The notes under the pieces were generated by a model. That model was not told where the DNA came from. It searched no databases and saw nothing but the letters and a program-made list of their open reading frames with translations. A stretch of 64,000 bases of DNA, taken from assembly GCA_043815085.1 (NCBI GenBank), contig JBDRJG010000001.1:1594-65593 (forward strand). Direction: 5' to 3'. A program made the translations under genes and the position numbers. This document shows, one piece after another, positions 6,902-29,104 of the stretch (positions are counted from its first letter, which is position 1; every line of letters begins with the position of its first letter). The DNA comes from Candidatus Iainarchaeum sp. GTDB taxonomy: Archaea; Nanobdellota; Nanobdellia; Pacearchaeales; GW2011-AR1.

Positions 6902-8839
6902 ATGATGTGGAATTTATACGAAGATGAAGAGTTTCTTAAACCTCTTAAATTCTCAAATGGGAAAACTCAGGAGGATGTTGTAAGAGAAGTTCTTGAAGCA
7001 ATAAAAGAGGGGCACAAAGTAATTTTTATAAATGGGAAATGTGGGACCGGGAAAAGTGCGATTGCGTTAAACATTGCAAAGAAGATTGGAAAGACATCAA
7101 TAATAGTCCCTGGAAAGAATCTCCAGCAACAGTATAAAAAAGATTATGAGAATAATAAATATCTTCTTAAGAAAGATAACACAAAACTAAAGATAAGTGT
7201 AATAACGGGAAGAAATAACCACAAATGCAAATTTCTTGAGGATGATAAAAATGCAATTCCCGCAATAAAAAAAGAAATTAATTCAAAATTATATGATATT
7301 TTTTCTGGAAAGAGAGAAAAATTGAATAGAATGACTGCGAATGATTTTTCTGCAGACAATTTTAATATTCCCTGCAGAATAGAAATAAAAGAAAAAAATA
7401 TCTCTAAAATAAAAGAATATCTAAAGCAAAACAAAAAAGTGAACATAGCTGACTTTGAGAGATTAAGTGATATAAAGAGAATCCCGATTGCATCTCTCTG
7501 CCCCTATTGGAGTCCTGTTTTCCCTGAAGATTTTGAATCAAAATATCTTGGAAAAGTTGAAAAAAGAAAATATAAAGGATTAAATGGAAAAGAATTTATC
7601 TTTTATCTCAGAAAACCCGGATGTAAATTTTATGAACAATTTAATTCTTACATAGATTCTGATGTTATCGTATTTAATTCATTAAAATATGAATTTGAAT
7701 TTGCAATGAATAGAAAACCTTTTACTGAAGCAGAAATTATAGACGAATGTGATGAATTTCTCGATAGTTTTGCGAATCAAAGAACAATAAATATAGACAG
7801 ATTGCAAAATTCGCTCTCACAAATACCTTCCTCGAATAGAGAAAATTTTCAAAAAATACAAGAGATTATGGAAATTCTCAAGCATCTAAAAACAGACAAG
7901 CAAGTTTTAAAATCATTGGATACAAATGAGATTATCCCTCTTAAAAAAACAGGAATCTATGATTTAATTAATATTTTCCTAAAAGAGCCTGGATTTCTAG
8001 AAGATATTGACGAAGATAGCTATGCCTATGATATTGAAAAAACTGCATTTATATTTGAGCATTTTCTTGACGAGAGTTATGTTATATTTAATAAAAAAGA
8101 GGAAAATCTAATTGCAAATATTGTCACAACAAATCTCTCTAAAAAATTCAAATGGCTAAAAGATAAGAATAAAGTCCTTATTTTAATGTCTGGAACGATT
8201 CATTCAAAAGATGTTTTAAAAGATATCTTCGGAATTGAAGAATTCAAATTAATAGAAGCGGAGACTAAACAGCCCGGAGAAATAAGAATAAGAAGAACAG
8301 GACTAGAGATGGATTGTAAATATTCAAACTTTTCTAATAACAAATTTACACGAAAAGATTATCTTTCTGCATTTGACAGATGCATTGATATTGCTGAAAA
8401 ACCAGTGCTCGTGCATGTGAATGGATTTTCTGACTTAGCAAGTGAGGATGAGATTAAAAAATTTAATCTAAAAAATTTTCCATCTAGAAGGAATTTAATT
8501 GAAAGTCAAAATGAGGACAAGGAAGGATTAATAGTTCAAAATTTTAAAAATAAAAAAACAGACATCTTATTTTCAACAAGAGTGTCTAGAGGAATGGATT
8601 TCCCTGGAGAGCAATGTCGAAGCATAATTTTCACTAAATATCCAAATCCAGACATAAAAAACTCTTTTTGGAGAATTTTAGGAAAAACACGCCCGATGCA
8701 TTATTGGAACTTTTATCGGGACAAAGCGCGTAGAGAATTGCTGCAAAAAGTATACAGGGGAGTAAGACATGAAGGAGATTATGTTTATGTTTTAAGTCCT
8801 GATAAAAGAGTTACTGATTTTTTTGAAAAAACAAATTAA
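6902..8839 (+). CDS. Rad3/XPD-like (DEAD_2 family) helicase, putative
   Basis: 645 aa. It has a Walker A motif INGKCGTGKSAIALNIA. Four Cys residues in the N-terminal half (NHKCKF, IPCRIE, SLCPYW) may ligate an FeS cluster. The C-terminus DILFSTRVSRGMDFPGEQCRSIIFTKYPNP resembles the XPD/DinG helicase C-terminal motif. Confidence 0.55.
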   Translation: MMWNLYEDEEFLKPLKFSNGKTQEDVVREVLEAIKEGHKVIFINGKCGTGKSAIALNIAKKIGKTSIIVPGKNLQQQYKKDYENNKYLLKKDNTKLKISVITGRNNHKCKFLEDDKNAIPAIKKEINSKLYDIFSGKREKLNRMTANDFSADNFNIPCRIEIKEKNISKIKEYLKQNKKVNIADFERLSDIKRIPIASLCPYWSPVFPEDFESKYLGKVEKRKYKGLNGKEFIFYLRKPGCKFYEQFNSYIDSDVIVFNSLKYEFEFAMNRKPFTEAEIIDECDEFLDSFANQRTINIDRLQNSLSQIPSSNRENFQKIQEIMEILKHLKTDKQVLKSLDTNEIIPLKKTGIYDLINIFLKEPGFLEDIDEDSYAYDIEKTAFIFEHFLDESYVIFNKKEENLIANIVTTNLSKKFKWLKDKNKVLILMSGTIHSKDVLKDIFGIEEFKLIEAETKQPGEIRIRRTGLEMDCKYSNFSNNKFTRKDYLSAFDRCIDIAEKPVLVHVNGFSDLASEDEIKKFNLKNFPSRRNLIESQNEDKEGLIVQNFKNKKTDILFSTRVSRGMDFPGEQCRSIIFTKYPNPDIKNSFWRILGKTRPMHYWNFYRDKARRELLQKVYRGVRHEGDYVYVLSPDKRVTDFFEKTN

Positions 8840-12906: not shown

Positions 12907-12986
12907 CGCCCCCAGCAGGAATCGAACCTGCGAGCCCAAAGGGCCTGGTTCTCAAGACCAGTGCAATACCACTATGCGATGGAGGC
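12907..12986 (-). tRNA. tRNA-Ser (anticodon UGA), class II with a long variable arm
   Basis: Hand-folded cloverleaf. The acceptor stem is GCCUCCA/UGGGGGC. The D-loop is AGUGGUA. The anticodon stem CUGGU/ACCAG closes loop CUUGAGA, giving anticodon UGA. The variable arm is 13 nt (GCCCUUUGGGCUC). The T-arm is GCAGG-UUCGAUU-CCUGC. The discriminator is G. No CCA is encoded. Confidence 0.7.
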
Positions 12987-16393: not shown

Positions 16394-17104
16394 ATGAACT
16401 TTATAAAAAAAGTGCATGACAGGAAGTTTGATGAAGAAGTCCATCTGCAGTTCCAGAGATTCTCAAAAGGAGAATTCAAAAATAGGGCTATACTAAACGC
16501 AAAATTCTCTGGAGGAAGATATACAATAAATACTAGCGCAGAGTTTGCAAATGAACTTGTGAAAGAAGTTGCAGAAAAATTGGGTTCAAAAAAGACAAAA
16601 GTGAGTGGTGCGATAATCTCCACTTTAGATTTGAAAAAAGATTTGGAATTTAAAGAGATTAAACAATTTCAGGGAGTTAAAAAATATATTCTTGAAAACG
16701 AGATGTCTGGCTCCGAGATTGTTAATTTAATCAATAAATTTCCAAAAGCATTTTTTGCATTAAGTTTTGATGCTGGAGATGAAACCATTCTTAAAACTAA
16801 AGTGAAATCTCCAAAATCTGGAAAGCCAGGAACAAAGGGGGAAGAAGCACCAAAGCCAGATTTCTGCAAATTAGTAACCAAAGACAAAAAAATTGCAGAA
16901 AATTTCATTTTTGAGAAGCCTGAATTTAAGAATGCAAAGGTTGTTCATGATTTTATTATTGAAAATATTAAGATTCCAGATGAACTGAAAGATTCAGAGG
17001 ATTTTGCACTTGTGAGAGAAAAAGCATTGCGCATTGGAAAGATTCTTAGAAAGGCGGAAATCGACGGAGAAAAACTTGTGAGAGAGTTGGATTTTAGTGC
17101 TTGA
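16394..17104 (+). CDS. hypothetical protein (236 aa) immediately upstream of the r-protein operon
   Basis: Long ORF with coding-like composition. No motif recognised. Confidence 0.45.
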   Translation: MNFIKKVHDRKFDEEVHLQFQRFSKGEFKNRAILNAKFSGGRYTINTSAEFANELVKEVAEKLGSKKTKVSGAIISTLDLKKDLEFKEIKQFQGVKKYILENEMSGSEIVNLINKFPKAFFALSFDAGDETILKTKVKSPKSGKPGTKGEEAPKPDFCKLVTKDKKIAENFIFEKPEFKNAKVVHDFIIENIKIPDELKDSEDFALVREKALRIGKILRKAEIDGEKLVRELDFSA

Positions 17105-17202: not shown

Positions 17203-18156
17203 ATGCCTTCAACAAAATCTCCAAGAAAAGGAAGTTTGCAGTTCTGGCCTCGAAAGAGAGTCAACAGATTTTTACCTAGTGTAAACTGGAAAGCTATTAA
17301 TTCTGGAAAGAGTCTAAAGGGGTTTATTGGATACAAGGCAGGGATGGTATCTGTTGAAATTAAGGATTTAACCCCCAATTCTATGACAAAAGATAAAAGA
17401 ATAATTATTCCAGGCACAATAATAGAATGCCCCTCTATGAAAATATTTTCTGTGAGATTCTATAAAAATGGCAGAGTTGCAAAAGAAATTCTTGCTGAAA
17501 ACCCAGATAAAGAACTTAAAAGAAGAGTCAAGCTTCCAAAAGAACATAAATTTAAATTAGATTCTGTAAAAAGTGAAGAATACGACAATGTTTCTATAAT
17601 TGCTTATTCTCAAGTGAAAAAAACAGAGATAAAGAAAAAACCAGATATGACAGAAATTGGATTGAATGGAAGTTTAGATGAAAAAATGAACTTCATTAAA
17701 ACGCATTTAAATAAAGAAATCTCTTTAGCTGAAATTTTCTCTTCAGGAGAACTTGTTGACTTAAGGGGCTTAACAAAAGGAAAAGGTTTTCAGGGCCCAA
17801 TAAAGAGATTTGGGGCCCACTTAAGATTCCACAAATCTGAAAAAGGAGTGAGAAAAATAGGGAGCATTGGACCTTGGCATCCTGCTCGTGTAACTTTCAG
17901 AGTTCCAATGGCCGGGCAGATGGGGATGTTCACACGAGTGCATTATAATCAAAAAATAATTTCCCTAGGCAAAGCACAAGATTCCCAAGATAAACTTAAA
18001 AATCTAAAAAATTATGGAAACCTTAATACAGATTATCTAATTGTTACGGGCTCTGTTCAGGGAGTTCCAAAAAGACCGTTATTAATTACAGCTACTCTTA
18101 GAACGAGCAAAATGCAGAAAAAGAAAAATTATGAATTTTTGGAGATTAAAAGATGA
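17203..18156 (+). CDS. rpl3: ribosomal protein uL3
   Basis: 317 aa. PRKGSLQFWPRKRV is the hallmark L3 N-terminus, and FQGPIKRFG...GSIGPWHP is in the conserved core. Confidence 0.9.
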   Translation: MPSTKSPRKGSLQFWPRKRVNRFLPSVNWKAINSGKSLKGFIGYKAGMVSVEIKDLTPNSMTKDKRIIIPGTIIECPSMKIFSVRFYKNGRVAKEILAENPDKELKRRVKLPKEHKFKLDSVKSEEYDNVSIIAYSQVKKTEIKKKPDMTEIGLNGSLDEKMNFIKTHLNKEISLAEIFSSGELVDLRGLTKGKGFQGPIKRFGAHLRFHKSEKGVRKIGSIGPWHPARVTFRVPMAGQMGMFTRVHYNQKIISLGKAQDSQDKLKNLKNYGNLNTDYLIVTGSVQGVPKRPLLITATLRTSKMQKKKNYEFLEIKR

Positions 18157-18455
18157 GACACAATGTTAACGAAAAAGTTTTGAAGAAAGGAATTGAAGAA
18201 ATTTTCAAAAAGAACATAAATAATGCAGAAAAAGAATTAGCCACACGATTAGAAGAGAGTAAAAATGAAACAGATAAAAAGGTGTTTGATTATTCTTTTA
18301 AAAATTTATATGATGTCAAAGAAAGATATCTTTCTTTGGTAAGTGCTGTCTCACATTATTTAGATAAAAATAAAATAAAAAAATATGAAGCTGAAATAGA
18401 TAATATGATAGATGAAAAAATTAGGGAATTAAAAAATTATATGGATAGTAAATAA
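18153..18455 (+). CDS. hypothetical K/E-rich protein (100 aa) inserted between rpl3 and rpl4
   Basis: Its ATG overlaps the L3 stop (ATGA). Predicted helical, charged protein. Not a known r-protein family. Confidence 0.5.
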   Translation: MRHNVNEKVLKKGIEEIFKKNINNAEKELATRLEESKNETDKKVFDYSFKNLYDVKERYLSLVSAVSHYLDKNKIKKYEAEIDNMIDEKIRELKNYMDSK

Positions 18456-18469
18456 AAGGGAATACAAAA

Positions 18470-19264
18470 ATGAAAGCAAAAGTATATGATACAAATGGAA
18501 AAGAAAAATCTCAGGTAGAACTTCCTAAAGAATTTTCTGCTGTTATTCGAGAAGATGTTGTTGCAAAGGTTCTTGAAACAAAGAAAAAACAGCAACCTTA
18601 CTCTCCATCTCCTGTTGCTGGAAAACAGCATTCTGCAAAAGGAAAAGTTAGACATAAAAGACACGTCTGGAGAAGCGGTTATGGAAGAGGTCAATCAAGA
18701 GTTCCAAGAAAAATATTTTCAAGAAAAGGTTCTCAATTCATTTGGCAAGGAGCTGAAGTCCCCCAAGCAAGAGGGGGTATGAGAGCGCATCCTCCAAAGG
18801 TTGTACAATTCTTAAGAGATTTAAAAATAAACAAAAAAGAACTGAGAATTGCTTTTGAATCTGCATTGAGTTCAACTGCAAATGAAAAATATGTTCTAAA
18901 AAAATATTCTAATCTTGAAAAAATTGATAAAAAAGTCCCATTAGTTCTTGTCTCAAACATTACAGAATTGAAAATAAAAGAACTGCTTAATGCATTAAAG
19001 AATATTCTTGGAAAAGAATTATTTGGGATAGCAATAAGAAAGAAATCTGTTCGAGCAGGAAAAGGAAAACTTCGAGGAAGAAAATATAAATCTAGTGCTG
19101 GAATGCTTTTTGTTTTAGGAAATAATGAAAAATTAAAAACAAATGCATTTGAAGTAAAAAGAGTCAAAGAACTAAATGTATTTGATTTAGCTAAAGGTGG
19201 TCTAGGAAGATTAACAATTTACACTGAAAAAGCAATTAGAGATTTAGGAGAAAAAAGAAAATGA
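18470..19264 (+). CDS. rpl4: ribosomal protein uL4
   Basis: 264 aa. Archaeal L4 signature (SWGTGRAVARIPRV-like region: HSAKGKVRHKRHVWRSGYGRGQSRVPRK). Confidence 0.9.
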   Translation: MKAKVYDTNGKEKSQVELPKEFSAVIREDVVAKVLETKKKQQPYSPSPVAGKQHSAKGKVRHKRHVWRSGYGRGQSRVPRKIFSRKGSQFIWQGAEVPQARGGMRAHPPKVVQFLRDLKINKKELRIAFESALSSTANEKYVLKKYSNLEKIDKKVPLVLVSNITELKIKELLNALKNILGKELFGIAIRKKSVRAGKGKLRGRKYKSSAGMLFVLGNNEKLKTNAFEVKRVKELNVFDLAKGGLGRLTIYTEKAIRDLGEKRK

Positions 19265-20201: not shown

Positions 20202-20507
20202 ATGGAAATAACAAATATGTATAATACTTTGAACGGAAATGAATGTCAAAAACATTTAGAAAAGTTAATTAAAAATGAAGCAGAAGGGAGAATAGTAATT
20301 TGGGGGCACAAACATAAAATTGATGTTGAGGATAGCAACACTTTTCATAACATAGCTCAAGAAATGAAGGTCAAAAATATTAACAATTTTTGTGGAGGGT
20401 TACATTATATTGGAGAGGTTGAAAAAGAACTTTGGACAATTTGCCTAGATGATGAATTAAATCAAGCTTTTTTAGACAAATATGGGGAGGAATATCAAAT
20501 TAATTAA
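20202..20507 (+). CDS. hypothetical protein (101 aa) inserted between rpl2 and rps19
   Basis: It starts 2 nt after the L2 stop. The first codons MEIT and 18 nt around the start are identical to the start of rps19 (direct repeat 20199-20216 / 20505-20522). Cys/His-containing. No known family. Confidence 0.5.
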   Translation: MEITNMYNTLNGNECQKHLEKLIKNEAEGRIVIWGHKHKIDVEDSNTFHNIAQEMKVKNINNFCGGLHYIGEVEKELWTICLDDELNQAFLDKYGEEYQIN

Positions 20508-20906: not shown

Positions 20907-21548
20907 ATGACTGAAAAAAGTTACAACCCAAATCAAAAGGAAAAAAAGGCAATGAAAAAACAGCCGAAGCAGATAGAAGCTAAACCAAAACAGCCAGAAA
21001 AAATTGAAACTCCGATAGCTGAAGCTAAACCAAAACAGGAAGAAACTGGTTCAGAAAAAACAGAAGAAAAAAAAATAGATGAAACTTCAAAAACTGAAAA
21101 ACCAGAAGAAAAAAAATCTGAATCAAAAAAACCTGCTAAAAAGATTAAAAAAGAAATTGTGATGGTGAATGCAAAAAGTGTCCCTATTTCTACAAAATAT
21201 GCAATTTATATCTGTAAATTTGTCAAAGGAAAAAGAATAGAAGATGCTATAAGAGATTTAGAGCAGGTTATACTATTAAAAAAAGTTGTTCCAATGAAAG
21301 GAGAATATGCACATCAAAAAGGAAAAGGAATAAGTGGAGGAAAATTCCCTCAAAGAGCTGCAAAATCTTTCATAGTCTTGCTTAAAAGTCTTGCAGGAAA
21401 TGCAAACAATCATGAAATCAACGAACCAATAATAACTGAAGCAATTGCGAACCAAGCTGCAATGCCCTTCGGAAGATTTGGAAGAGTGAGAAGAAAGAGA
21501 ACACACATTACAATTAAAGCAAGAGAAGCAAAGGAGAAGAAAAAATGA
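20907..21548 (+). CDS. rpl22: ribosomal protein uL22 with a roughly 85-aa K/E/P-rich N-terminal extension
   Basis: 213 aa. The C-terminal 130 aa match L22 (AKSVPISTKYAIYICKFVKGKRIEDAIRDLEQV...). The N-terminus is low-complexity (KPKQ/EEKK repeats). Confidence 0.85.
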   Translation: MTEKSYNPNQKEKKAMKKQPKQIEAKPKQPEKIETPIAEAKPKQEETGSEKTEEKKIDETSKTEKPEEKKSESKKPAKKIKKEIVMVNAKSVPISTKYAIYICKFVKGKRIEDAIRDLEQVILLKKVVPMKGEYAHQKGKGISGGKFPQRAAKSFIVLLKSLAGNANNHEINEPIITEAIANQAAMPFGRFGRVRRKRTHITIKAREAKEKKK

Positions 21549-21805
21549 ATAACATAGTAAAATACACCGCCATACAAAAAATGTTTGAATCTTCAAAAGA
21601 GTTAATTGAACAGTTAAAGAGCCCCGAGGTATTGATAAGGACTTTGAAAAAATATGTTAATGAAGGATTAGAAGCATATAAAGAAAAAAATACAGATTCG
21701 TTTCAATTTAATAATCGTTTATATCAAGTTACTTTTGACAGAGCGAAAAAAGTAGGGGTGAATATTTCGGAATATCCAATAATATTGGAGGCACTAATGA
21801 ATTAA
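21545..21805 (+). CDS. hypothetical protein (86 aa) inserted between rpl22 and rps3
   Basis: Its ATG overlaps the L22 stop (ATGA). It ends 1 nt before the S3 start. No known family. Confidence 0.5.
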   Translation: MNNIVKYTAIQKMFESSKELIEQLKSPEVLIRTLKKYVNEGLEAYKEKNTDSFQFNNRLYQVTFDRAKKVGVNISEYPIILEALMN

Positions 21806-22688: not shown

Positions 22689-22988
22689 ATGGAAATAGAT
22701 CCAACAACAGGATTGCCTTTAGAGGCAATAGAATGGGAAAACCTCACAAGGGGTTCGCAAAGGATAACCGTGAAAACAGACAAAAAACGATATGGAAAAC
22801 TCGTGACTGTTATAAGTGGATTTGACAAGGGAGTCGATGTGAAGAAAATCGCAAAAAGTCTGAAAAATGAACTGGCTTGCGGTGGAACTTACAAAGACGA
22901 TAAAATAGAACTCCAAGGAGACCACATGAGAAAAATAAAACCAATTTTGGTAAGACTTGGTTTTGACAACAACTCAGTAGAGGAATAA
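22689..22988 (+). CDS. sui1: translation initiation factor SUI1 (aIF1)
   Basis: 99 aa. GKLVTVISGFDKGVDVKKIAKSLKNELACGGTYKDDKIELQGDHMRKIKPILVRLGF matches the SUI1 core. Confidence 0.85.
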   Translation: MEIDPTTGLPLEAIEWENLTRGSQRITVKTDKKRYGKLVTVISGFDKGVDVKKIAKSLKNELACGGTYKDDKIELQGDHMRKIKPILVRLGFDNNSVEE

Positions 22989-25365: not shown

Positions 25366-25595
25366 TGACCGCGAGTGATTGGAAAAAAATATTGAAACAG
25401 CTCGATGCTAAACCAGTTATAAAACAGAAATATATAAAACATAATAAACCGAGAGAAAGAAAGACAGGAATTGCTGCCAAAAAATGCGAGAGATGCGGAA
25501 GATTTGGAGCACATATAAAATCATACGGATTAAATTTATGTCGACACTGCGTTAGAGGAATAGCAGTTGAAATCGGCTTTCAAAAATACAGTTAA
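25365..25595 (+). CDS. rps14: ribosomal protein uS14 (Zn-binding type Z)
   Basis: CERCGRFGAHIKSYGLNLCRHCVRGIAVEIGFQKYS is the C4 zinc-ribbon S14 signature. 76 aa including an N-terminal extension. Confidence 0.8.
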   Translation: MTASDWKKILKQLDAKPVIKQKYIKHNKPRERKTGIAAKKCERCGRFGAHIKSYGLNLCRHCVRGIAVEIGFQKYS

Positions 25596-25596
25596 A

Positions 25597-25986
25597 ATGG
25601 AAACAACAACAGAAATAAAAAATAATGAAAAAGAATATATGAAAGAAATAGATTTCCTTGGGGTGTTACAATTTCAATATTGGATAAATAAAAAATTATG
25701 TAGAGATAATCCAAATAAAGATTATGTCTTCTTAGATGAAGGACTGGGTAAAGGAGAATTTGTTAAATTGATTAAAGAAGGAGAAAAAATTATGGTAAAA
25801 ACTTTTGATATTAAGGGTTATGGTGATTTAGAAGGAAATCTAATTGAGGTTAAAACAGTAAAACAAGGGTACCCCTTAAGTGTATCTGTTTATAGAAATT
25901 TTGATAAAACAAAAGATTCTAAGAAACAACAAATTTATTATGATGCTCTTAAGAAATCTAAATTTTATAATGGAGTTAAAAACTAA
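25597..25986 (+). CDS. hypothetical protein (about 129 aa from METTTEIKNN) inserted between rps14 and rps8
   Basis: It starts 2 nt after the S14 stop and ends 2 nt before the S8 ATG. No known family. The ORF track's upstream start at 25567 overlaps S14. Confidence 0.5.
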   Translation: METTTEIKNNEKEYMKEIDFLGVLQFQYWINKKLCRDNPNKDYVFLDEGLGKGEFVKLIKEGEKIMVKTFDIKGYGDLEGNLIEVKTVKQGYPLSVSVYRNFDKTKDSKKQQIYYDALKKSKFYNGVKN

Positions 25987-25987
25987 A

Positions 25988-26368
25988 ATGTCACACGATG
26001 TAGTTGCAGACGCACTAAACATGATAAAGAATGCTCAAAAAGCTAGAAATGATACTGTTAGAATAGATAGAATCTCAAATCTACTTATAGAAATTCTTAA
26101 AATTATGAAACAGGAAAAAGCAATCAAGAAGTATAAGATTGATGCTAAGGAAAAATCAATAATGCTCACAATTGGAGAACTTGCTGAATGCAAGGCAATA
26201 AAGCCAAGATTCAGTTGCGATAAAAATCAAATAGAAAAATACAGAAGAAGATATCTGCCATCGAGAAATCTGGGAACTTTAATAATCTCCACAAACAAAG
26301 GATTAATGACCCATAAAGAAGCTCAAACTGAAAATGCGGGGGGTTGCTTAATTGCATATTTTTATTAA
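25988..26368 (+). CDS. rps8: ribosomal protein uS8
   Basis: MSHDVVADALNMIKNAQKARNDTV is the S8 N-terminus. The C-terminus is GGCLIAYFY. The ORF-track start at 25880 is a spurious upstream extension. Confidence 0.85.
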   Translation: MSHDVVADALNMIKNAQKARNDTVRIDRISNLLIEILKIMKQEKAIKKYKIDAKEKSIMLTIGELAECKAIKPRFSCDKNQIEKYRRRYLPSRNLGTLIISTNKGLMTHKEAQTENAGGCLIAYFY

Positions 26369-28315: not shown

Positions 28316-29104
28316 ATGGAAAAAGAATTAGAAAAAAAAGGAATTGAAAAAGAAGAAGACGAGTACGCTGAAATTCCTGAAAAAGTCCTTGATGTTAAAG
28401 ATTTAAAAGAACTCGAACTTATGAATAAAAACAAAGCACCAGAGGAAAAGAAAGAAGGAGCAAGCGGATCCTGGATTCCTAAAACCCGTCTAGGAATTGA
28501 GGTTAAATCCGGAAAAATAAAAAATATTGATGAAATTCTAAAATTAAATAGAAAAATCCTTGAAGTTGAAATTGTGGATTATCTTCTAAACACTAAAACA
28601 GATTTACTTTCAATTGGACAATCAAAAGGAAAATTCGGAGGAGGGAAAAGAAGAGCGTGGAGACAAACTCAAAGAAAAAAGAAAGAGGGAAATGTTCCAA
28701 CATTTTCTGCAATGGCTGTTGCAGGCGATGAAAACGGACACATTGGAATAGGTTATGGAAAATCGATGGAGACTCTTCCTGCTCGAGATAAAGCGACACG
28801 AAAAGCAAAATTAAATATAATAAAAATAAAGAGAGCGTGTTCAGGATTTGACTGTGACTGCCAAGAATTACACACTGTTCCATTTAAGGTAACTGGAAAA
28901 GCCGGAAGTGTGAGAGTAACCCTCATACCTGCCTCTCAAGGAACAGGACTAGTTGTTGCAAATGAACTAAAAAAGATATTAAAACTTGCAGGAATTAAAG
29001 ATGTTTACAGTAAAACATCTGGAAAAGTGAGAACAACATTTAATTTAGCCAAGGCCTGCATGGGTGCTTTGGAGAAGACAACCTCAATGGAGAATAGAGA
29101 ATGA
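28316..29104 (+). CDS. rps5: ribosomal protein uS5 with an acidic roughly 50-aa N-terminal extension
   Basis: 262 aa. WIPKTRLGIEVKSGKI. The S5 dsRBD-like and C-terminal domains are conserved. Confidence 0.85.
   Translation: MEKELEKKGIEKEEDEYAEIPEKVLDVKDLKELELMNKNKAPEEKKEGASGSWIPKTRLGIEVKSGKIKNIDEILKLNRKILEVEIVDYLLNTKTDLLSIGQSKGKFGGGKRRAWRQTQRKKKEGNVPTFSAMAVAGDENGHIGIGYGKSMETLPARDKATRKAKLNIIKIKRACSGFDCDCQELHTVPFKVTGKAGSVRVTLIPASQGTGLVVANELKKILKLAGIKDVYSKTSGKVRTTFNLAKACMGALEKTTSMENRE

Follow-up and report, generated by a model that had tools for sequence, protein, structure and literature searches.

Why does an archaeal S10-spc ribosomal protein (r-protein) cluster contain, between its genes for L3 and L4, an open reading frame (ORF) for a protein that matches no known r-protein? 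The cluster lies on the plus strand of the 64,000-nucleotide (nt) stretch of DNA analyzed here (the window, to whose full length coordinates refer) and runs in the order L3, ORF, L4, L23, L2, S19, L22, S3, L29, SUI1, S17, L14, L24, and then S4e to L30. The element in question (18153–18455, plus strand; hereafter the ORF) encodes 100 amino acids (aa). We estimate a probability of roughly 60% that it is a dispensable orphan guest gene, transcribed with the operon, translated by reinitiation after L3, and encoding a small helical binding protein. In all likelihood it is not a constitutive r-protein. Its family is confined to Pacearchaeota/Woesearchaeota-type DPANN archaea and is undescribed, without a Pfam or NCBIfam model, yet it is a lineage-restricted orphan in a native operon; it is therefore known in kind and new as a family.

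All features of this junction lie on the plus strand. The L3 (uL3) gene (17203–18156; 317 aa; Pfam PF00297 Ribosomal_L3, E = 4.4e-58) ends with a TGA stop codon inside an ATGA (18153–18156) that also holds the start codon of the ORF. The ORF closes with TAA at 18453–18455 and is separated by a 14-nt spacer (18456–18469) from the L4 (uL4) gene (18470–19264; 264 aa; Pfam PF00573 Ribosomal_L4, E = 6e-20). A preliminary description of the locus had given these same positions, which are correct, and had held that the tight translational coupling of the operon was preserved; in the window the 4-nt overlap is found at the L3–ORF junction only, and at the ORF–L4 junction the window, unlike most family members, shows a gap of 14 nt. 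Among the aligned loci that carry the gene (carriers), the start of the ORF overlaps the L3 stop by ATGA in the window and seven of the nine others, and lies 1 nt past it (TAA-A-ATG) in L055 and L088, the L numbers being labels for individual loci. Because termination-reinitiation at such stop-start overlaps has been proved experimentally in archaea (PMC6728339, PMC10666635), the step from L3 to the ORF is very likely translationally coupled; reinitiation depends on an overlap (−4 or −1 nt) or a very small gap and, in the systems tested, was lost at a spacing of ∼20 nt (PMC10666635). A GGAG (18141–18144) within the 3′ end of L3, 8 nt upstream of the ORF start codon, may serve as its Shine-Dalgarno (SD) sequence, and GGAG or GAGGT is kept at the L3 3′ end in carriers and non-carriers alike, preceding the L4 start codon in relatives without an insert. 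Downstream, the ORF–L4 junction of the other carriers examined is an ATGA overlap or a 1-nt gap, with the exception of L033, whose listed L4 start codon is 46 nt downstream. The spacing in the window is thus atypical for the family, and the step to L4 probably leans on an SD-like motif of its own, the G-rich AAGGGA (18456–18461) that ends 8 nt before the L4 start codon.

Judged from its sequence, the ORF is almost certainly a real protein-coding gene. At its own composition (GC 23%, against 32–34% in the flanks) a run of 100 stop-free codons has a probability of ∼7e-6, none of 20,000 shuffled sequences contained an open frame of at least 99 codons, and the other five frames of the region hold 3–18 stops each. 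Codon log-odds against the operon genes are positive only in the frame of the ORF. Differences between pairs of homologues are most frequent at the third codon position, followed by the first and then the second, and the ratio of nonsynonymous to synonymous substitution rates (dN/dS) is 0.11–0.38 in the five pairs for which dS could be estimated. The ORF is under purifying selection, weaker than that on L3 and L4 (dN/dS of 0.16 and 0.18, respectively, between the window and L001). It is on account of a frame length beyond chance and of these dN/dS values that the ORF is taken as a genuine gene. Coding signature and family conservation, on whose absence together the preliminary description had staked its proposal, are both present. 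A structured or regulatory RNA element was rejected as a candidate, since Rfam gives no match in the ORF even at E ≤ 1 and the RNA folding z-score, −0.92, is unremarkable. The sole Rfam match in the window at the gathering threshold is a tRNA gene at 12907–12986 on the minus strand.

The protein belongs to a small family. A word-indexed search of 5.8e9 proteins returned the ORF product itself, recorded at NCBI as "hypothetical protein ABIE36_00140" of a Candidatus Diapherotrites archaeon metagenome-assembled genome (MAG), and one homologue at 73% identity; HMMER, run exhaustively over 1.84e9 cluster representatives, returned three proteins, adding two members at E values of 4e-13 and 2.6e-5. 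A profile search, a kind of check proposed in the preliminary description, was run against the 5.8e9 proteins and enlarges the family to 13 clusters, all of them devoid of Pfam domains and on DPANN-type contigs, and the protein profile recovers diverged members (26–42% identity) in the same frame and place. The family divides into a long subfamily of 99–106 aa (the window and P0002–P0004) and a short one of 75–83 aa (P0005–P0013) that lacks the middle segment. The common core consists of an N-terminal helix, M-[RK]-Y...G-[IM]-E-E-x-x-K-x-x-x-N-x-x-E, a Tyr, and a C-terminal E-[LVI]. Nothing above threshold was obtained for the family from Pfam, NCBIfam, a PDB profile search, PHROGs, or PADLOC, in agreement with the earlier statement that no known r-protein is matched; one weak PHROGs match (E = 0.0055, unknown function) concerns a single member. 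Matches to End3 (22 bits, below the cutoff of 25.2, in two near-identical members only) and to the designed helix DHP1 were discarded as compositional or coiled-coil in nature. A tblastn search against the window and a search of 744 kb of related loci with the family hidden Markov model (HMM) revealed no paralogue, no origin from L3 or L4, and nothing away from the junction.

The product was correctly described at the outset as rich in Lys and Glu and predicted to be helical, with 22 Lys plus Arg and 20 Asp plus Glu per 100 residues. Across the family the net charge ranges from −6 to +2 and the isoelectric point (pI) from 5.0 to 8.7, compared with net charges of +5 to +39 and pI values of 9.6–10.8 for twelve r-proteins of the operon. 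Two AlphaFold2 models were made, with mean confidence (pLDDT) of 75 and 82; the latter, built from 12 family sequences (pTM 0.68), is an all-helical three-helix bundle with helices at residues 7–37, 44–65, and 72–99. Foldseek gave no match with E < 0.1 for either model against the PDB, or for the second against viral structures, and the top listings (E ≥ 0.14, TM-score ∼0.3–0.7, 7–20% identity) are generic bundles, namely designed proteins, bS20, the BAG domain, and SNARE Habc. What the modeled protein would have in common with these is an up-down-up bundle of three helices, ∼100 residues in length; bS20 differs in being bacterial, strongly basic, and without sequence relationship, and the likeness is of a kind that the fold itself accounts for. 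Neither a signal peptide nor a hydrophobic segment occurs in the family (grand average of hydropathy −0.4 to −1.1). Modeled in this way, the product is most likely a soluble, roughly neutral protein-binder rather than a structural binder of rRNA.

The distribution of the gene was followed in 80 related loci, obtained from an L3-based scan of GTDB species representatives, all of which belong to MAGs of Pacearchaeota, Woesearchaeota, or Nanoarchaeota (some few being labeled as bacteria). The DPANN origin guessed in the preliminary description is thus right, and, because all 80 of the closest L3 loci are of these groups, the NCBI label "Candidatus Diapherotrites" of the source MAG looks doubtful, either wrong or outdated. 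Gene context was read in 15 carrier loci (the window, L001, L014, L033, L055, L061, and L082–L090), and in all 15 the order is L3, ORF, L4, with the ORF starting in the ATGA of the L3 stop or 1 nt past it. The position is therefore conserved in every member found, as the preliminary description had asked to be checked, and its claim that the gene is almost certainly expressed together with the r-proteins is upheld at the level of gene arrangement. Searching a six-frame translation of the 744 kb of related loci with the family HMM gave matches at the L3|L4 junction only. Pattern scans of metagenomes and viral contigs produced pattern matches, none confirmed as belonging to the family, the full alignment being too divergent for pattern design.

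Within the related set the gene is present in four loci (L014, L033, L055, and L061) and missing from the remaining 76, including the sister genome L002 and L003–L013. In a neighbor-joining tree of L3 plus L4, carriers of the long subfamily are scattered: the window is sister to the non-carrier L002, L001 and L014 are nested among the non-carriers L007 and L012, and L082 belongs to a different clade. The short subfamily is present throughout one clade (L033, L084, L055, L088, and L089), with L061 far off. In L002, the closest relative (L3 85% identical), a 48-nt spacer between L3 and L4 (1502–1553) opens with ATGA and encodes MKYKINTKKILRYY before a stop codon. This peptide resembles the N terminus of the family (P∼0.0013 against composition-matched random peptides), and the 14-codon stretch is likely a deletion remnant of the gene. 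Patchy carriers and the putative remnant in L002 thus indicate that the gene is dispensable and has been lost repeatedly. A 19-codon mini-ORF between L3 and L4 in L068, with ATGA at both ends, was also considered and is unlike the family (score −8.9). L3 has no carrier-specific column, and L4 has only a conservative Leu/Ile/Met column that is also found in many non-carriers.

In 64 of the 80 relatives L3 and L4 are directly adjacent, 56 of them at a distance of −4 to +2 nt; the same ATGA forms the L3 stop and the L4 start in 37, and the two genes lie 1–2 nt apart in 17. The ORF therefore sits exactly at a native stop-start junction, which it rebuilds at its own 3′ end. It is not alone in doing so. 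In the other 16 of the 80 loci an ORF of 75–127 aa occupies the L3|L4 junction, and these guests form at least 12 mutually unrelated families, all beginning at the L3 ATGA or directly past the L3 stop; many of the unrelated ones have G-rich runs 8–12 nt before the L4 start codon. Further inserts occur at L4|L23, L23|L2, L2|S19, S19|L22, and L22|S3, so that about 30 of the 80 loci have at least one between L3 and S3. When 44 inserts were scanned against Pfam, matches were confined to an RNase_T-like exonuclease and a HAD hydrolase, leaving more than 40 ORFs without a Pfam domain. The exonuclease, a conserved DEDD (RNase_T-like, PF00929) 3′-5′ enzyme of 199–237 aa, is placed between L4 and L23 with 4-nt overlaps (L020 6071–6751, L029 5741–6340, L033 6016–6687, L039 1828–2475, L055 3041–3736, and L068 5804–6454; also L084–L090); it was observed together with the short subfamily in one clade and elsewhere in loci without the family. 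The HAD-family hydrolase (∼149 aa, assigned by Pfam) stands between L23 and L2 (L021 6022–6471; L050 6008–6454). With so many unrelated guests at the same junctions, operon position is weak evidence of function.

The window itself holds four guests, the ORF and three further orphans, all on the plus strand. ORF101 (20202–20507; 101 aa, pI 5.0) sits between L2 and S19, with a 26-nt overlap on the S19 start, and has no Pfam or NCBIfam match. It has a homologue of 81% identity at the same L2|S19 junction in L012 (6610–6915) and another of 31% identity (E = 4e-14) at the S19|L22 junction in L043 (∼7694–8017); the ORF101 family has therefore changed junction. ORF86 (21545–21805; 86 aa), between L22 and S3, begins in an ATGA overlap on the L22 stop, also lacks a Pfam or NCBIfam match, and is a singleton, matching only itself among the 5.8e9 proteins and having no homologue in the 80 related loci. 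The fourth, a 129-aa ORF counted from its first ATG (25597–25986), lies between S14 (which ends at 25595) and S8 (which starts at 25988), with no Pfam, PHROGs, or PADLOC match. By hhalign the other guests of the window are unrelated to the family of the ORF (probability of 0.3% for ORF86). A motif seen by eye in ORF86, L062, and L044, A-x-x-G-V-N/D-x-S-x-Y/L-P/D, was dropped as unsupported (hhalign probability ≤8%). Several otherwise unrelated guests at different junctions (among them L032 4765–5082, L043 6885–7292, and L068 6689–7066) look alike to the eye at both termini, with E-[DE]-L-x-x-L-x-x-G-[DE] near the N terminus and K-x-A-G-[IL]-W-[RK]-[EN] near the C terminus. An "AGIW" superfamily of inserts defined by this C terminus is unproven, an iterated HMM search within the set having recruited no further members.

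The history of the ORF was compared with that of its flanks through synonymous differences at conserved residues, and two of the four informative pairs show a history unlike that of L3 and L4. Between the window and L014, 11 of 69 sites differ in the ORF versus 147 of 391 in L3 plus L4 (p = 3e-4), an effect that persists within the two-fold codon class, and between L055 and L088 the counts are 14 of 59 versus 188 of 386 (p = 4e-4). In a sliding window the edges of the block of high nucleotide identity coincide with the ORF (0.80–0.89 for the window and L014, ∼0.77–0.86 for L055 and L088), and identity drops to 0.61–0.69 in the adjoining ends of L3 (3′) and L4 (5′). No reduced synonymous divergence of the ORF was found between the window and L082 or between L033 and L084. 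At an equal L3 identity of 69%, the ORF of the window is 72% identical to that of L014 and 42% identical to that of L082. A general constraint at the nucleotide level is unlikely because the effect is missing from these other two pairs, and the Rfam and folding results agree. The pattern suggests, with moderate confidence, occasional lateral replacement of the ORF alone, in the manner of a cassette exchange.

If the ORF is a dispensable guest, it would have no promoter of its own and would be transcribed with the r-protein operon. Its translation would proceed by termination-reinitiation at the ATGA common with the L3 stop, helped by the GGAG in the L3 3′ end, and would yield the product in roughly L3-like amounts, as a soluble three-helix bundle of ∼100 residues acting through protein-protein binding. 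Junctions of the r-protein operon may, across the lineage, provide safe, promoter-less expression sites for unrelated small guests, and the ORF would have been acquired and kept since a stop-start junction offers harmless expression of this type. Guests would be gained, lost by deletion, and at times swapped between lineages as ORF-sized cassettes.

This picture has a close precedent in bacteria. ORFans frequently enter native operons, where native promoters express them, and names based on location have misled annotators, as for flhE and btuE (Price, Arkin & Alm 2006, "The Life-Cycle of Operons," PMC1480536). Like those genes, the ORF is taxonomically restricted, under purifying selection, placed downstream of a native gene and presumably served by a native promoter, with no evident functional link to its neighbors; its homologues occur only in close relatives, and its flanks are adjacent in other relatives. 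Unlike them, its host is the archaeal S10-spc cluster, usually held to be among the most rigid of gene orders, and its family shows stop-start junctions on both sides in most carriers, a constant return to one junction, and many unrelated guests at neighboring junctions. The ORF may thus be viewed, by analogy, as the archaeal r-protein-operon version of the ORFan in a native operon. Less ordinary are the frequency, diversity, and precise coupling of guests in a supposedly rigid operon, together with hints of ORF-only exchange; no paper describing guest ORFs in DPANN r-protein operons was found in the literature. Small non-r-protein genes co-transcribed in the archaeal S10-spc cluster are familiar from aSUI1/eIF1 (SUI1 is at 22689–22988 in the window) and Rpp29/RNP1, and hypothetical and "non-cluster" genes have been recorded inside Asgard clusters (PMC10833476). 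Unlike the ORF, whose family is found in ∼5% of related species with no homologue detected elsewhere, aSUI1 and Rpp29 are broadly conserved in archaea and act in translation or RNA processing.

A number of observations sit uneasily with a dispensable guest. Expression of every family member is predicted from sequence only. Fidelity to one junction in every member, at L3 identities down to ∼59%, is more than a random hitchhiker needs and fits a specific link to L3 or L4; the clade of L033, L084, L055, L088, and L089 carries the gene without exception; and subunits of a single complex are over-represented among overlapping gene pairs (PMC10666635). The guest counts cover the r-protein operon only. 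Neither recombination sites, flanking repeats, nor an integrase or recombinase were seen at the junctions, which present only the ATGA and SD-like context of insert-less operons, and exchange is deduced from two pairs only, to which unrecognized nucleotide constraint or rate variation could contribute.

Several of these points favor a lineage-specific ribosome-associated protein made in step with L3 and L4, which might be either a facultative peripheral r-protein or a dedicated escort to the extended basic regions of uL3 or uL4, a role analogous to that of eukaryotic Rrb1 (for uL3) and Acl4 (for uL4). We regard this as unlikely, although an invariant position in all 15 carrier loci, a start coupled in every carrier to the L3 stop and, for most of them, an end coupled to the L4 start, the enrichment of short overlaps among genes for the same complex, fixation within one clade, and purifying selection all speak for it, as does the presence of the three-helix r-protein bS20 among the top, non-significant Foldseek listings. 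There is also a precedent in the spc-like operon of Methanococcus vannielii, where unnamed ORFs later proved to be S4e, L32e, and L19e. Nevertheless, the ORF shows neither lineage-wide presence (4 of 80 species, the sister genome being among the 76 without it), nor a basic composition, nor homology to a known r-protein family. Non-carrier L3 and L4 have no compensating change, the structural matches all have E > 0.1 and are generic bundles, and the address is not specific, as unrelated ORFs, enzymes included, use the same junction with the same coupling. The proposal in the preliminary description of a lineage-specific ribosomal protein is accordingly not supported, given the scarcity of the gene, the charge of its product, and the presence of unrelated guests. 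Archaeal r-proteins such as aL45–aL47, found by ribosome proteomics, offer the nearest comparison: they are likewise small, taxonomically restricted, unrecognizable by sequence, and identified only from ribosomes directly, but are lineage-wide, whereas the ORF family has a patchy distribution, a neutral to acidic character, and no copy in the closest relative. The product may have a facultative role at the ribosome; beyond its address, nothing marks the ORF as an r-protein.

More doubtful still is a conflict-related or selfish cassette (defense, anti-defense, or toxin/antitoxin-like) that persists since an essential operon seldom allows its precise excision, and that is swapped between lineages. 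The patchy distribution, the ORF-sized blocks of high identity in two pairs, a GC content well below that of the flanks, fast protein evolution (42% identity where L3 has 69%), the wide range of unrelated guests that these sites accommodate, and the differing junctions of the ORF101 family in different genomes would all be expected of such an element. Against this, PADLOC and PHROGs gave no match save the weak one to a single member, there is no viral contig or viral structure match, and the partner gene expected of a toxin-antitoxin pair is missing. All matches of the family are at L3|L4, with none at a second site in the 744 kb of related loci and none in viral contigs, and the junctions have no repeats or recombinase.

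A bolder variant, which we consider a long shot, is that stop-start junctions of r-protein operons in Pacearchaeota/Woesearchaeota-type DPANN archaea are a dedicated landing and exchange platform for promoter-less ORF cassettes encoding small proteins that evolve fast, which would move between lineages without their flanks and regenerate ATGA coupling on both sides, the ORF product, made in step with ribosomes, being a facultative partner of the ribosome. If true, some insertion or exchange mechanism would await description, and DPANN ribosomes would be clad in a variable shell of accessory proteins. Finally, a non-coding origin, either as a chance ORF in an expanded spacer or as a structured or regulatory RNA element, is effectively refuted, since a very A-rich, low-complexity sequence annotated in databases as no more than a "hypothetical protein" is outweighed by an open frame of improbable length, frame-specific substitutions with dN/dS well below 1 in independent pairs, diverged members detected by profile in the same frame and place, and the unremarkable Rfam and folding results.

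Other features of the cluster were noted in passing. L22 (20907–21548) has an N-terminal extension of ∼88 residues rich in Lys, Glu, and Pro before its Pfam domain, and S5 (28316–29104) is longer at its N terminus by ∼115 residues; compared with archaeal homologues, both are of unusual length. Directly 5′ of L3 is a gene for a 236-aa protein (16394–17104, plus strand) without an NCBIfam match, whose homologue in L088 (2325–3032) and L089 is 235 aa long with no Pfam match on record. Related genomes keep the synteny of an AMP/thymidine phosphorylase-like gene, an AI-2E transporter, a gene of the 236-aa type, and L3, and the window and L001 have a conserved sequence block 5′ of the L3 start.

For annotation, the locus advises caution: in this lineage, a place in the r-protein operon is no proof that a gene is ribosomal. 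In evolutionary terms, the locus and its 80 relatives indicate that small orphans can often be gained, lost, and probably exchanged at the stop-start junctions of one of the most conserved gene orders in biology, with the coupling rebuilt each time. The family, with its 13 clusters, constant address, and confidently modeled three-helix bundle, is a tractable test case. To our knowledge there has been no direct study of DPANN ribosomes, and if any of the guests turned out to be ribosome binders, no accessory ribosome proteins of DPANN archaea would have been described before them.

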